Source: an uncultured Eggerthellaceae bacterium
GTDB taxonomy: Bacteria > Actinomycetota > Coriobacteriia > Coriobacteriales > Eggerthellaceae
Length of the DNA stretch: 60,601 nucleotides
Assembly: GCA_910585565.1 (NCBI GenBank)
Contig: CAJUFC010000156.1
Coordinates: 1-60,601 of the forward strand
Direction of reading: 5' to 3'
Part shown: one piece after another, positions 15,224 through 22,019 of the stretch
Layout: each line of letters opens with the position of its first letter
Numbering within the stretch: the first letter of the stretch is position 1
Position numbers and translations under genes: made by a program
The notes under the pieces: generated by a model
Told to the model about the DNA's origin: nothing
Seen by the model: only the letters and a program-made list of their open reading frames with translations
The model's database searches: none

Positions 15224-16201
15224 TCACCATTCTTCCGGAATGTACAGAGTTACGTCACCGTAAGCAGCTCTTAACTTCTCGAAAGAAACCCCACCGCTAT
15301 GTTTACACGCATCATGGATTATTGTCGGAATAAGGAGCATCGTATTTCCATCTGCGCATTCATGCCAGGTGAGTTTGTTTTCTTTGCGATAAGCAGCAAT
15401 CTGCCTGCAGAGTACGTCTCGTTTCATTTCTCGTAGAGAGGATTCGGATAGAGATAATTTCTCGGCTAATGCCAAATCAGCTTGATTGAAATTACCTAAA
15501 TCATATGATGGATCATATGCTTGAGCTTTTGTGCGCCTCCCATATTCCCATTTCGGATTCCTTCTATGGGAAGTCATGTGACCTATGGATACTTCAGCGA
15601 AAACGTCTCCCCAAGGTGTTGAAATGTGTGCAAATGGCGTGAAATCAGGGTATCCGTCTTTGTACTCAACCCCTTCGGTCCCGTATTCAGCCAAGAAAGC
15701 CCTTGCATCCGAATCATTGGGAATAAAAAGTGAGTTACCGGCCACTCCGCTGAAGTCACCTGTTTTTTGTGTTGGCAGATGCTTGCGTCCAGGTAAAGGC
15801 TCTTCTTTTGAAAAATCAACCTTTAAAGCACTTTCTTCCCCGCTGTTGTCTAACTCTCGTATGATGCCTAGCTCTTCTTCAGTGCTCATGGTCTTCGAAA
15901 AATCGATATTCTCAGATTGTTTGTTGAAATCTTTTACGATGTATTCTTCGAGAAGATCAGCCGTTTGATTCAATCCGGCCACCAATCCTCCGCAAGCATC
16001 CTCTATATCCTGTGCGGCGGCTGTACATCGATTGACATAATCCCAAAATAGATTTGCGCGTATGCCTAAGTTTTGCATTTGAGAAGCAACAAACTCTAGC
16101 AGCCTATCAGATTCCTCACTAAGATGATCAATTGCTTGCGGTATGACGATGGCGAAATCGCGCAATGCTTGCACGCTTTCCAAGGAGGCGCTAACTTTCA
16201 T
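15224..16201 (-). CDS. Polymorphic-toxin-like protein: N-terminal helical WXG100/LXG-like domain plus C-terminal HNH/EndoVII (WHH-type) nuclease domain
   Basis: C-terminus GYPDFTPFA...NFNQADLALAEK...LTWHECADGNTMLLIPTIIHDACKHSGG (nt 15290-15370) matches the remembered WHH toxin pattern YTWHH..d...MqLVP...H....HtGG. The first ~90 aa are paralogous to the upstream 121-aa protein. Confidence 0.7.
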   Translation of the reverse strand: MKVSASLESVQALRDFAIVIPQAIDHLSEESDRLLEFVASQMQNLGIRANLFWDYVNRCTAAAQDIEDACGGLVAGLNQTADLLEEYIVKDFNKQSENIDFSKTMSTEEELGIIRELDNSGEESALKVDFSKEEPLPGRKHLPTQKTGDFSGVAGNSLFIPNDSDARAFLAEYGTEGVEYKDGYPDFTPFAHISTPWGDVFAEVSIGHMTSHRRNPKWEYGRRTKAQAYDPSYDLGNFNQADLALAEKLSLSESSLREMKRDVLCRQIAAYRKENKLTWHECADGNTMLLIPTIIHDACKHSGGVSFEKLRAAYGDVTLYIPEEW

Positions 16202-16217
16202 CTGGTGCCTTCGATGT

Positions 16218-16583
16218 CTAACGCCTTATAACGGTTTTGGTATCTTTTACTTTTTGCCCTCGTCTTGGCGCAGAGGATTCGCCTCCAGAATTAACCCCGT
16301 CCATGCCCAGTTGCTTGTTGATCCAGCCCTCTAAACTATCTGCCGTGGCATTCAGCCCCTTAGGAAGATCGGACAATGCGTCTGAAGCATCTTGAGCTGC
16401 CCGCATGCACATCCTGACGATATCCTCAAAATCACGCCCCCTAACACCTAGATCAGATTCAAGCCCTCGATATTTTTCTTGAAGATGCTGGGTTTCATCG
16501 ATTATTTGATTGACTGCATATGGCATTGCCTCTGCAAAATCCCGCAGCGCCTGAACGCTCTCCAGATTAGCCTCGATCTGCAT
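16218..16583 (-). CDS. Small helical protein, paralogue of the toxin N-terminal domain (WXG100/LXG-partner-like)
   Basis: MQIEANLESVQALRDFAEAMPYAV... aligns with MKVSASLESVQALRDFAIVIPQAI..., and both carry a shared (D/N)LG(V/I)R motif. The tail is Gly/Ser/Lys-rich. Confidence 0.6.
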   Translation of the reverse strand: MQIEANLESVQALRDFAEAMPYAVNQIIDETQHLQEKYRGLESDLGVRGRDFEDIVRMCMRAAQDASDALSDLPKGLNATADSLEGWINKQLGMDGVNSGGESSAPRRGQKVKDTKTVIRR

Positions 16584-16587
16584 TTAC

Positions 16588-16872
16588 CTATGCCTCCTCG
16601 ACTATTGTTTCCAAATCTTTGAGGTCATTTGCGAGGATGGTAAGTCCATCTTCGATAATTCGGTCCGTCGCCCAATCAAGAACAGCCAAGGCTTCTTCAA
16701 GTTTAGTTATCTTCTTGCGCGAAATAGGATCGCTACCCATCGCCTGGTCACACACATTTGCCGCATTCAGTAAGAATTGTTTTTGAGTATAGATAGCCTC
16801 TTGATATTCGCGCACTGCGGTGATAAGCGACCTTACCGCATCTGTATCCATGAAATTGTTCGACATCTGCAA
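16588..16872 (-). CDS. 94-aa helical-hairpin protein (WXG100-like size and shape; AMG in place of WxG)
   Basis: Two predicted helices joined at CDQAMGSDP near the midpoint. 8 nt downstream of the ATPase stop. Confidence 0.5.
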   Translation of the reverse strand: MQMSNNFMDTDAVRSLITAVREYQEAIYTQKQFLLNAANVCDQAMGSDPISRKKITKLEEALAVLDWATDRIIEDGLTILANDLKDLETIVEEA

Positions 16873-16880
16873 CCCTTTCC

Positions 16881-20180: not shown

Positions 20181-20187
20181 ATTCTCC

Positions 20188-21195
20188 CTAAAAGCTACGC
20201 GGCGGAACATAATTTGCATTAATCGCTCGATATGTCATAGATGCGCTAACGTAATTAGCTCCATAATCAAAGTCGATCTCCATAGGAATCACTGCACCAC
20301 CAGAGATATCATCTGGATAAGACACGATTATTTCGGTATGAACATTTTGCGCTATAGCATTAGCAAGGGCGGACTGTTCGGAGAAATCCTTTAGGCAAGA
20401 TACGCGCTTTATCTTAAAATCATATTCGCCATAAGGCGTTTCCACCCTATTTTTAAAGACCTTGAAACTAAAAGGTACGTCGATGCTTTGCACATGTGGC
20501 CTTCTGTCGGCCGCCTCTATGCTTCGCTTAAAGCCATCGAGCAGAAGTTCGATGATTTCTTGCGCAACTGTGCTATTTGCATACCTGACACTGTCTTTTC
20601 GCAGCTTTTCTTCATACTTTTTTCTATGAGCGTTCTTTTCTTCACGTAGCCGTGAAATCTCTTGCTCGGTTTCTGCCTGAACTCTTTCAATGCGCTCGGC
20701 GGTTGATTTCGAGATATTGCTGAGCTCAGCTTCTTGCTTGCTTTTCTCCTTTGCGATTTGAGCGGAAAGACTTTTGTCTCGCAGGCCTCTTATAATCCCC
20801 ATCACGATCAGTGTGACCACGAATGCAACGCCCGGCGTGCCAAACCAAATCCACATGCCGAACTCAACATATTCACCCTCTCTTGTCAAAGTAATGCCAA
20901 GGCTTTCTGCAAATTGGCGCTCTGATTCATGATCCGGCATCAAGGCGCAGCTTCCGAAAAAGACGACAGCAAAGACCATTAAGGATGTAATAAACGCAAC
21001 TTTCAGATAAGAAGGCGTTTCATGCATTTGCGCTTCAAGATGTGAGATGGTTTCATCGTATTTCTTCGAGGTTTTCCAGGCTTTTTCGTTAGCGCTGTCT
21101 TTCTCTTCCGCAACTGTCGCTGATGCATGATTCTCTAACGCGGCTATTTTGTTGTCTATCTGTTCGTCGTATGAACGCGGATTGATATCACTCAT
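20188..21195 (-). CDS. Two-TM membrane protein with a cytoplasmic coiled coil and a C-terminal globular domain
   Basis: TM segments YLKVAFITSLMVFAVVFFGSCAL and MWIWFGTPGVAFVVTLIVMGII. Lys/Glu-rich coiled coil. No recognised family. Confidence 0.7.
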   Translation of the reverse strand: MSDINPRSYDEQIDNKIAALENHASATVAEEKDSANEKAWKTSKKYDETISHLEAQMHETPSYLKVAFITSLMVFAVVFFGSCALMPDHESERQFAESLGITLTREGEYVEFGMWIWFGTPGVAFVVTLIVMGIIRGLRDKSLSAQIAKEKSKQEAELSNISKSTAERIERVQAETEQEISRLREEKNAHRKKYEEKLRKDSVRYANSTVAQEIIELLLDGFKRSIEAADRRPHVQSIDVPFSFKVFKNRVETPYGEYDFKIKRVSCLKDFSEQSALANAIAQNVHTEIIVSYPDDISGGAVIPMEIDFDYGANYVSASMTYRAINANYVPPRSF

Positions 21196-21225
21196 ATCGG
21201 TTCGTCTTCTCGTTGCTGTTTTTAG

Positions 21226-21564
21226 CTAGACACAGGCTTTCGCTATTGGGTAAATACAACAAATCAGGCACGCAATAACGTAGCCACCAGACATTGATCC
21301 ACCGACAGCGACACCGCACATGAAGAAGAATTGCAGAAAGGCGCAAATAAGGCAGAGGACAACGTTTCCTCCAAAGCGGATCCCTAGTACGAACATCAAT
21401 ATTCCCGAAATCACTGCGCAGATCGGGCCGACTGCCGAACCGGCTAGCGAACATCCGATTGCTATTAATTCAAACAATCCTACCGCAACAAGCAATCCCA
21501 TCGGTTTGGCGTTGCCGAGTTTGTTTCCTACAAAGAATCCTGCAATTGCCGAAAAGATATTCAT
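21226..21564 (-). CDS. Small Cys-rich, Gly-rich 4-TM membrane protein
   Basis: 112 aa with 9 Cys, ending CLICCIYPIAKACV. AGGGGA RBS. Confidence 0.65.
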   Translation of the reverse strand: MNIFSAIAGFFVGNKLGNAKPMGLLVAVGLFELIAIGCSLAGSAVGPICAVISGILMFVLGIRFGGNVVLCLICAFLQFFFMCGVAVGGSMSGGYVIACLICCIYPIAKACV

Positions 21565-21572
21565 ATGTTCCC

Positions 21573-22019
21573 CTAGCCGATAATGCCAGTCATGGCTTCA
21601 TCTATCGCTTGGCAAACCGCTGCGTAATATGAATCCTCTTTTTGTGCAGCAGTCTTATCCGAAAAGAGCTTTCCCTGTGCAACTTTTTGATAATTCCTAG
21701 ACGTAGGTGTTCCCTGGGCGATAGTTACTTCGAGAATGGCCCCCGTTTTGTCAAATGCAGCAAAGACTGATGCATAATCGCTGAAGGATTGTGAAGTAAA
21801 GACGACGGCAGGACTGATTGTGCCCGACCCAAACAATCCCCCTCCGATTTTATACTCATCGGAGCGAGCGTTAACCGGCATCCCCATATCATCTTGCATG
21901 ATGGAAGAAACGGCATCCGATACTAGTTGCGCCGCTTCGTTTGGATCGATACCTTGAGCTCCTTTGTATCTGCGCACATCCAAAAGCATGGTTTCATTAA
22001 CAGGCCCCTTGATAGTCAT
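21573..22019 (-). CDS. Hypothetical soluble protein (148 aa)
   Basis: Starts MTIKGPVNETM behind GAAAGGA. The track ORF extends upstream through an unlikely leader. Confidence 0.55.
   Translation of the reverse strand: MTIKGPVNETMLLDVRRYKGAQGIDPNEAAQLVSDAVSSIMQDDMGMPVNARSDEYKIGGGLFGSGTISPAVVFTSQSFSDYASVFAAFDKTGAILEVTIAQGTPTSRNYQKVAQGKLFSDKTAAQKEDSYYAAVCQAIDEAMTGIIG

Follow-up and report, generated by a model that had tools for sequence, protein, structure and literature searches.

An AT-rich island in the genome of an uncultured Eggerthellaceae bacterium carries five genes that are best explained as a compact, horizontally acquired form of a polymorphic-toxin export family. The genes occupy positions 15224-21195 of the stretch of DNA analysed here (contig CAJUFC010000156.1 of assembly GCA_910585565.1; 60,601 nucleotides (nt), hereafter the window), and encode a 335-amino-acid (aa) protein with two transmembrane (TM) segments, a 1099-aa ATPase, two small helical hairpins of 94 and 121 aa, and a 325-aa toxin (Table 1). 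On balance we consider it probable, from the comparison of sequences and gene neighbourhoods, that the cassette mediates export of the toxin to competitors in the manner of a type VII secretion system (T7SS), with the motor and the membrane anchor being separate proteins. This reading is favoured because the ATPase has an EccC/EssC-type fold, the hairpins and the membrane partner are conserved, the toxin repertoire of the family and the immunity-type open reading frames (ORFs) behind most of its toxin types are those of delivered toxins, and part of the family is linked to a kinase/vWA/PP2C triad, as in T7SSc.

An earlier note, made from the sequence alone, had described a module of seven close-packed, co-directional genes in AT-rich DNA. 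The seven minus-strand ORFs are indeed present, with gaps of 4-30 nt (8, 30, 7, 8, 4 and 16 nt in order from the gene for a 148-aa protein), and the GC fraction is 0.44-0.49 at 15-22 kb of the window and 0.42-0.50 for the AT-rich island, against 0.61-0.71 in both flanks; the island extends to ~25 kb, past the 22019 at which that note had ended it. The unit, however, consists of five of these genes and not seven, since the 148-aa protein and a 112-aa Cys-rich membrane protein never occur with the ATPase family in the 80 loci of our genome scan (L005-L084; one genome per species) and accompany radical S-adenosylmethionine (radical-SAM) genes instead. In phmmer searches of these loci, homologues of the 148-aa and 112-aa proteins and of a nearby 151-aa ORF product were found with the ATPase only in the window's own contig (L001), and for the radical-SAM protein and recombinase encoded nearby the matches elsewhere were confined to a weak one of the radical-SAM type (L073) and a resolvase homologue (L076).

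The five-gene unit itself is widely conserved. A word-indexed search for relatives of the ATPase retrieved only three. At E<1e-30 an exhaustive HMMER search returned 272 cluster representatives, of which over 100 have the full length of ~1100 aa. Family members are annotated publicly only as 'FtsK/SpoIIIE domain-containing protein'. The 80 scan loci derive nearly all from gut and rumen Clostridia (Lachnospiraceae, Oscillospiraceae), together with one Eggerthellaceae metagenome-assembled genome (MAG) that holds the nearest relative of the window's ATPase (L005). Neighbour families were obtained by clustering all ORFs of the loci, the ATPase cluster being present in 77 loci. The family of the 121-aa protein (c1) has 118 members in 62 loci, with 50 members fused to C-terminal domains, and that of the 94-aa protein (c2) is found in 52 loci, immediately downstream of the ATPase. 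The neighbourhood check proposed in the earlier note had a divided outcome, as the family of the 335-aa protein (c3) lies directly beside the ATPase in 35 loci, but the 112-aa protein does so nowhere outside L001. The closest relatives, L002 and L005, have the same minimal set of four to five genes as the window, in three unrelated contexts, L002 lacking a toxin and L005 having the 335-aa gene split into two ORFs. As the same gene order is found again in dozens of unrelated contigs, the arrangement is not due to chance. The kinase/vWA/PP2C triad occurs in 13-14 loci of the family, and none of these vWA/TerY-P genes is present in the window. In 10 loci (within L006-L016, for example L008 5383-6162) a paralogue of Lgt, the prolipoprotein diacylglyceryl transferase (Pfam 1.5e-36), is encoded upstream of the 335-aa-type gene; it is absent from the window.

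With respect to gene starts, that of the ATPase at 20180 is supported by a GGGAG ribosome-binding site and by its alignment with the starts of homologous proteins. The 94-aa ORF has an alternative ATG at 16866 with a better ribosome-binding site, by which its hairpin is probably of 92 aa. A scan for promoters and terminators found sites no commoner than in shuffled sequence and is thus uninformative on the operon limits, and a search for direct or inverted repeats bounding the AT-rich island found none, turning up only an unrelated insertion sequence (IS).

The ATPase is EssC/EccC-like and, from its hydropathy, is predicted to be soluble, with an N-terminal coiled coil replacing the FHA domains and TM helices. 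It contains one active domain between two degenerate ones. Pfam identified FtsK_SpoIIIE (2.5e-15) on residues 473-593 as the only such domain, and the Walker A motif GGASRSGKST (aa 496-505, nt 18666-18695) is present in a single copy; there was no FHA match in Pfam and no hydrophobic segment in the hydropathy profile. The AlphaFold2 (AF2) model, from 39 family sequences, has a predicted local distance difference test (pLDDT) score of 81.9 and displays helices at aa 7-181 followed by three alpha/beta domains. The description in the earlier note, of one canonical P-loop domain flanked by two degenerate domains and accompanied by a coiled coil, without TM helix or FHA domain, is thus borne out by Pfam, hydropathy and the model. 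The only NCBIfam matches were EccCa (7e-19), EccCb and EssC, all far below the model cut-offs, and sequence matches in the PDB were to EccC, EssC and YukB, the best being EccC 4nh0. When the model was compared with the PDB by Foldseek, the top eight matches were multi-domain EccC/EssC structures, with 4nh0 aligned over 1017 columns (E 2.4e-20) and 4n1a, 4lya and 5fv0 over 640-685; FtsK and TcpA ranked lower and covered one domain only. The claim of tandem domains rests on this fold search, because hhalign comparisons among the three sub-domains were only marginal (E 0.024 and 3e-4). The properties of the window's ATPase are those of its family: 72 of 73 full-length members lack a TM-like segment and 69 of the 73 have exactly one Walker A motif.

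It could be argued that such a protein serves a mobile element as its DNA translocase or coupling protein (TcpA/TraB/FtsK-like) and has unrelated neighbours, given that its Pfam family is FtsK_SpoIIIE, that the island has a serine recombinase and that PHROGs label related phage proteins as FtsK/SpoIIIE-like. The fold and hidden Markov model matches, however, favour EccC/EssC tandem domains over FtsK and TcpA; the conserved partners of the ATPase are hairpins and toxins rather than transfer genes; and no relaxase, type IV secretion or transfer family was found in the scanned window genes (Pfam, NCBIfam) or in the annotated neighbour clusters. We regard this explanation as highly improbable. Clustering with coupling proteins or TraB-like translocases, by which the earlier note would have been refuted, is not what Foldseek and NCBIfam show.

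The two ends of the ATPase differ in their conservation. Pairs of the N-terminal 190 aa were similar in 100% of cases within c4/c6-type loci, in 43% within c3-type loci and in 25% between types, whereas the C-terminal 330 aa were similar in nearly all pairs, whatever the type of membrane partner. This pattern fits an N-terminus that would dock on the membrane partner and a C-terminus that would handle the common hairpins. It should be emphasized, however, that coiled coils also simply diverge faster. The C-terminal domain contains a ~90-residue insert of low confidence at aa 905-992 (aa 905-1099 corresponding to nt 16884-17465), and a tail of conserved E-Y-L-L closes the family ATPases, possibly as a motif for docking or regulation.

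The 121-aa protein aligns with residues 1-98 of the toxin at 44% identity (E 5e-22), in accordance with the paralogy pointed out in the earlier note; to judge from this alignment, the hairpin is a stand-alone copy of the N-terminal domain of the toxin. The turn of c1 hairpins is L-G with a nearly invariant Gly, and that of c2 hairpins a conserved C-D-x-x-M-G-x-D; the two profiles are homologous (hhalign E 1.6e-7), in register around the central turn. With respect to WXG100 proteins, the 121-aa protein of the window matched the Pfam family at E 0.11 and the 94-aa protein had no such match. Among c1 members the commonest Pfam families were T7SS_ESX_EspC (21/64) and WXG100 (13/64), and among c2 members DUF6468 (14/54) came first and WXG100 (8/54) second. 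As all of these matches are sub-threshold, the hairpins are called only WXG100-like, and both the 94-aa and the 121-aa protein are candidate relatives rather than proven members of that family. Searches of the PDB with the c1 and c2 profiles cannot decide membership, since they are dominated by coiled-coil composition (coronavirus HR1, designed bundles), EsxA 2vs0 appearing at E 0.054 and HP0062 2gts at E 0.02. Thus, of the three WXG100/LXG-like proteins proposed previously, the hairpins retain a WXG100-like character, but the N-terminal domain of the toxin has no LXG match in Pfam: LXG was not found in the window toxin at E<=1, nor was it among the seven families matched by 50 toxins of the family (E<=0.001).

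The C-terminus of the toxin matches Colicin-DNase (3.4e-12) and WHH (3.4e-10), both above the Pfam cut-offs, and in the PDB its sequence matches the Rhs C-terminal toxins 8bd1 and 8h8a. The HNH/EndoVII WHH-like nuclease assigned by the earlier note therefore stands as a class, although the motif reads WHE instead of WHH. Across the family, the 50 c1-headed proteins have at least 11 C-terminal types, with Pfam identifying WHH/Colicin-DNase in nine, Gln_amidase (glutamine deamidase) in eight, ADPrib_exo_Tox in seven, C39-like in five and ART in three. To judge from their sequences, these proteins are polymorphic toxins, in which a common N-terminal domain is joined to variable C-terminal toxin domains. 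The toxins occur in arrays of two to three per locus, and downstream of types 1-6, at -3 to +30 nt, come small type-specific ORFs, a predicted toxin-immunity signature. When grouped by C-terminal type, the toxin of the window is one of 13 WHH/Colicin-DNase-type toxins, the others being encoded at L005, L010, L011, L013, L016, L029, L033, L044, L061, L065, L067 and L078. All 13 have W-H-E-like motifs. The 148-aa protein was considered as the missing immunity protein of the window and rejected, as L005 lacks it despite having the same type of toxin, and as it accompanies radical-SAM genes.

The membrane partner has TM segments at aa 61-88 and 112-139 by hydropathy, and its AF2 model (pLDDT 84) consists of an N-terminal helix, a TM hairpin, a helix of ~100 residues and an alpha/beta domain. 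The long helix runs from the second TM segment into a coiled-coil stalk, the N-terminal helix is placed in the cytoplasm, and the C-terminal alpha/beta domain (aa 230-335) is conserved. The 2-TM coiled-coil protein recognised in the earlier note is thus recovered by both methods. The protein belongs to no Pfam, NCBIfam, PADLOC or PHROGs family, PADLOC giving only a weak match to ZorA3 (E 0.0003, 17 bits), and its model matched no PDB fold (best E 0.03). In about half of the family the upstream set is a different one, comprising membrane proteins of 1440 and 650 aa and a protein of ~270 aa (within L018-L060; for example L027 3630-7949, L060 710-2668 and L037 7708-9303). The 1440-aa protein has a C-terminal region with a zinc ribbon and HExxH. 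Loci with this set often have TIR-Sel1 and RCK/TrkA-like membrane proteins downstream. No Pfam family was assigned to any of these proteins.

Since the cassette lacks most T7SS membrane parts, it could be a set of substrates and adaptors that uses a canonical T7SS encoded elsewhere in the host, the ATPase being a chaperone or targeting factor and not the motor. The genes for LXG toxins and their Lap partners frequently lie at a distance from the core locus (Garrett, Higginson and Palmer 2024; PMC11217815), and only 60 kb of the host genome is visible. A three-domain motor of 1099 aa that is kept together with a membrane protein and substrates at ~80 loci would, however, be costly for an adaptor, and the cassette moves as a unit between hosts as distant as Clostridia and an Eggerthellaceae MAG. 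In addition, the hairpins and the toxin N-terminal domain are far from canonical WXG100 and LXG sequences, and recognition by a standard EssC is thus not expected. Dependence on a host T7SS is accordingly viewed as distinctly unlikely.

Export by the cassette itself draws support from the homologies, domain layout, gene neighbourhood and toxin repertoire described above, from which we infer docking, transport and target as follows. The ATPase would form a hexamer, as FtsK/EssC-type motors do, and its coiled coil would dock on the cytoplasmic coiled-coil stalk of the 2-TM protein, which would supply the membrane anchor, and possibly the conduit, that EssC has in its own chain (a 'split EssC'). 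The hairpins and the paralogous N-terminal domain of the toxin, which are homologous, would form helical bundles by analogy with EsxA/B and LXG-Lap, and the degenerate, conserved C-terminal ATPase-like domain may recognise these bundles. ATP hydrolysis in the central domain would then export the hairpins and the WHH toxin across the single Gram-positive membrane, and the toxin would act on rival bacteria. A secretion role for related operons was pointed to by Anantharaman et al. 2012, according to the passage of Bell et al. 2024 (PMC11090510) that cites them.

Several observations weigh against export. The ATPase is devoid of TM helices, and the one dedicated membrane protein in the window, a 2-TM hairpin, has only a short loop outside and matched no fold; for a protein channel this is a thin basis. 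Pfam and NCBIfam found no EsaB/YukD, EssA, EssB, EsaA or EccB/D/E/MycP in the ten proteins of the island, and no membrane protein adjoins the related proteobacterial ATPases in the operons L087 and L086 (see below). The matches that connect the hairpins with WXG100 proteins are sub-threshold. No consistent downstream (immunity) gene follows the WHH-type toxins in the window and the 12 related loci, the window toxin being followed only by a doubtful 53-aa ORF at 15041-15202 with a TTG start and no ribosome-binding site. Bell et al. 2024 (PMC11090510) wrote of related operons that 'a different mechanism appears likely', and the family is known from sequences and models alone. Finally, the company is of the defence type, with TerD, TIR-Sel1, CoCoNuT/McrBC-like and CARF genes beside relatives and an Abi_2 gene in the window itself.

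Some of these points speak for intracellular defence or abortive infection, in which nothing is exported; the soluble ATPase would sense an invader (phage DNA or protein) and, with ATP, free or activate a nuclease held by the small proteins, so that the infected cell dies. The absence of a TM helix from the ATPase and of an immunity gene adjacent to the WHH toxins would be in keeping with such a system, as would the occurrence of relatives within CoCoNuT, CARF or TerY-P operons and the position of Abi_2 as a neighbour of the island, prophage accessory slots often carrying defence genes. FtsK-like ATPases are indeed found in defence systems, the P-loop domain of the window protein matching mad8 (5.7e-11) and SspH (7.8e-08) in PADLOC. 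These matches, however, stop at the generic P-loop; no defined defence system in PADLOC-DB v2 matches the cassette, and the hairpins and toxin have no match there at all. Furthermore, the type-specific ORFs downstream of most toxin types and the arrays of two to three toxins indicate delivered toxins rather than suicide effectors, the toxin domains are of typical exported kinds, a membrane protein is conserved beside the ATPase in the Clostridial branch, and the fold of the ATPase is closest to secretion ATPases. Thus, of the three options offered by the earlier note, export is favoured, defence is unlikely in our estimation while being a live rival, and reliance on a host T7SS has little to commend it.

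If the cassette does export its toxin, it would represent a stripped-down T7SS-type machine of four core genes plus cargo, and would bear on what minimally makes a T7SS translocation channel. It would also expose a toxin-delivery route of many gut and rumen Clostridia that, in the window, can be moved by a phage. It is conceivable, short of being probable, that the soluble one-site motor and the 2-TM stalk are by themselves a self-sufficient minimal T7SS-like exporter, widespread in gut Clostridia and mobilised by a prophage into a high-GC host; no smaller T7SS-type machine would then be known, and it would be a new route by which bacteria of the gut microbiome antagonise one another. Should the cassette instead be a defence module, EssC-like ATPases and WXG100-like hairpins would have been re-used for immunity, settling the ambiguity left by Bell et al. 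2024. At 6 kb the five-gene unit is small enough for direct heterologous testing.

That the locus is prophage-borne, as stated in the earlier note, is evident from phage structural genes on the strand of the cassette: PHROGs identified the terminase, portal and major head protein, together with a head-tail adaptor, Dit and a Tal-like protein. The five-gene cassette is cargo in the accessory slot between the portal and scaffold genes, an interval of ~14.8 kb. This interval also harbours the Abi_2 gene, the IS, a lipoprotein-like nuclease, two helix-turn-helix regulators, a small serine recombinase, the 151-aa ORF and a radical-SAM/SPASM maturase. The capsid of the prophage is 38% identical to that of Eggerthella phage PMBT5, whose equivalent interval contains accessory genes and a minor head protein; the accessory genes at the same position identify the interval as a cargo slot. 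A Gram-positive host of the Coriobacteriia type is suggested by the high GC content, by this capsid identity and by the occurrence of the nearest ATPase relative (L005) in an Eggerthellaceae MAG. The Abi_2/abortive-infection-type gene lies directly downstream of the portal, its longest ORF overlapping the portal 3' end and the called gene being shorter. The IS has perfect 29-bp terminal inverted repeats around a Transposase_mut-type gene, and the 302-aa Endonuclease_NS_2 protein, with the lipoprotein-like signal LLALPGC, is possibly a nuclease that is secreted or placed at the surface. The stretch from the head-tail adaptor genes to Dit/Tal (9581-13417) showed neither a tail-tube nor a tape-measure gene, and the prophage is possibly defective or has a tail of an unusual type. 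A typical phage system was also considered for the cassette and rejected: a scan of IMG/VR gave one distant match to the family, and a fold search of the viral structures in BFVD with the ATPase gave single-domain FtsK-like matches only. A longer relative is found on a putative phage fragment, a human faecal phage contig (L004 584-9636; MT836827.1), which encodes a ThiF/E1-like protein, a 93-aa coiled-coil protein, a 1423-aa FtsK-like ATPase without TM helices, a 349-aa toxin that is headed by a c1 domain and has an HExxH-like motif, the product of an 82-aa ORF, and a large serine recombinase.

The genes for the 148-aa and 112-aa proteins appear, from their gene neighbourhoods, to belong to the adjacent radical-SAM/SPASM cassette, which resembles those of ribosomally synthesized and post-translationally modified peptides. 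Homologues of the 148-aa protein adjoin a radical-SAM/SPASM gene and short Cys-containing ORFs in L088-L093, to which the 42-aa Cys-rich ORF of the window corresponds, a membrane protein of the 112-aa type is directly beside them in L092 and L093, and a resolvase precedes the cassette in L088-L090. The 112-aa protein has nine Cys, and its overlapping hydrophobic stretches over residues 19-112 are consistent with the four TM helices described previously, the helices not being counted separately. The radical-SAM cassette repeatedly adjoins conflict-type systems: in L093 (1-6343) it is beside another FtsK-like ATPase and two small helical proteins, and in L088-L090 (L088 5186-14423) beside genes for DO-GTPase2, GrpE, Hsp70 and Hsp70-vWA.

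Table 1. Positions of the cassette, its protein domains and neighbouring features in the window.
Feature	Position (nt)	Residues (aa)	Strand	Basis or remark
Five-gene cassette	15224-21195		minus	335-aa, ATPase, 94-aa, 121-aa and toxin genes
325-aa toxin gene	15224-16201		minus	ORF call
Toxin C-terminal HNH/EndoVII WHH-type nuclease	15284-15670	178-306	minus	WHE variant
Toxin N-terminal c1-type targeting domain	15902-16201	1-100	minus	linker follows
121-aa helical hairpin gene (cluster c1)	16218-16583		minus	ORF call
94-aa helical hairpin gene (cluster c2)	16588-16872		minus	ORF call
1099-aa TM-less EssC/EccC-like ATPase gene	16881-20180		minus	ORF call
ATPase degenerate C-terminal domain	16884-18020	721-1099	minus	
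ATPase active P-loop domain	18021-18794	463-720	minus	
ATPase degenerate FtsK-like domain	18795-19634	183-462	minus	
ATPase coiled coil	19638-20180	1-181	minus	
335-aa membrane partner gene (cluster c3)	20188-21195		minus	ORF call, hydropathy
Radical-SAM/SPASM cassette (putative)	21226-23953			includes 148-aa and 112-aa genes (21226-22019)
112-aa Cys-rich membrane protein gene	21226-21564		minus	ORF call
148-aa soluble protein gene	21573-22019		minus	ORF call
42-aa Cys-rich ORF	22079-22207			CVGCYCDTKPC tail; overlaps maturase gene
Radical-SAM/SPASM maturase	22176-23471			Clo7bot/CefB-like, NCBIfam 6.6e-88, below cut-off
Endonuclease_NS_2 protein	26245-27153		plus	in cargo interval
IS	27233-28571			Transposase_mut-type gene at 27403-28533
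Abi_2/abortive-infection-type gene	28657-29832			PHROG 2158, 3.8e-24
Major head protein	13420-14346		minus	PHROGs
Portal	29616-30887		minus	PHROGs
Terminase large subunit	31416-32783		minus	PHROGs

Compared with known systems, the cassette resembles the T7SSb of Bacillota in its EssC-type tandem FtsK-like domains, in the small helical hairpins directly downstream, and in toxins whose helical N-terminal targeting domain has paralogues that stand alone, most toxin types being followed by immunity-like ORFs. In contrast with T7SSb, the ATPase of the window is soluble, without FHA domains and with one active site; EsaA, EssA, EssB and EsaB are missing from the island; and the toxin N-terminal domain is of ~100 aa and not Pfam LXG (PF04740; ~200 aa), with hairpins below the WXG100 threshold. 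Garrett et al. 2024 (PMC11217815) defined T7SSc-j, reporting a membrane-bound TsxC in all ten subtypes and a YukD-like TsxB in most, and T7SSc was found to have a TscD kinase, a TscE vWA protein and a TscF PPM phosphatase. Similarly, part of the present family has genes for a kinase, a vWA protein and a PP2C phosphatase along with that for the ATPase, and the loci encode HNH toxins and small WXG100-related partners, as in T7SSc-j. Neither a membrane-bound TsxC nor a YukD-like TsxB is present in the window, however, and the three genes characteristic of T7SSc are absent from it. Phage-borne polymorphic toxins, in the form of MuF-toxin fusions of temperate phages, are said to have been described by Jamet et al. 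in 2017. The toxin of the window likewise lies in the head-morphogenesis region of a temperate phage, but it has no MuF domain and is accompanied by its own ATPase, membrane protein and hairpins, and its family is almost never phage-borne (the one distant IMG/VR match).

The closest described relatives show that the architecture is not, as the earlier note had supposed, without precedent. Bell et al. 2024 (PMC11090510) described TM-less EssC-like ATPases beside CoCoNuT systems (the CoCoNuT type III-A extension), with an N-terminal coiled coil and three ATPase domains of which the central one alone is active, in operons that also hold two WXG100 proteins and a coiled-coil-nuclease fusion; with reference to Anantharaman, Iyer and Aravind 2012, they stated that such operons can act alone as a mobile system for secretion. 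In Uchiyama et al. 2016 (PMC4978471) there is a listing of the HP0062/HP0066 'WXG100 secretion system' island of H. pylori, comprising FtsK/SpoIIIE, WXG100 and an HNH/EndoVII nuclease. The profile of our ATPase family aligned by hhalign with the CoCoNuT-linked TM-less ATPase of a Caballeronia plasmid operon (L087) at E 5e-25 and with that of a Helicobacter plasmid operon (L086), in which an SMI1/KNR4 protein follows the HNH nuclease, at E 5e-23; both alignments span ~420 columns, including the degenerate upstream domain and leaving the C-terminal domain unaligned. The window resembles these operons in that a coiled coil at the N-terminus replaces FHA domains and TM helices, the central domain alone of three ATPase-like ones is active, two small WXG100-like hairpins are encoded, a nuclease is fused to a helical N-terminus, and the unit is mobile; some relatives of the cassette are, as there, linked to vWA/kinase/PP2C (TerY-P) genes. 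The ATPases of the described operons are shorter (823-927 aa), their effectors are D-ExK or LHH/HNH nucleases without a polymorphic array (the nuclease of the window being of the HNH type), and the operons occur in diderm hosts of the Proteobacteria. The window and its Clostridial relatives, in contrast, have a conserved membrane partner of two or more TM segments and polymorphic toxins, and in the window the carrier is a prophage. Thus, the layout of TM-less ATPase, WXG100 proteins and nuclease has already been described in silico for proteobacterial relatives, whereas novelty appears to lie in the conservation of a membrane partner, in arrays of toxins, in monoderm hosts and in carriage by a phage.

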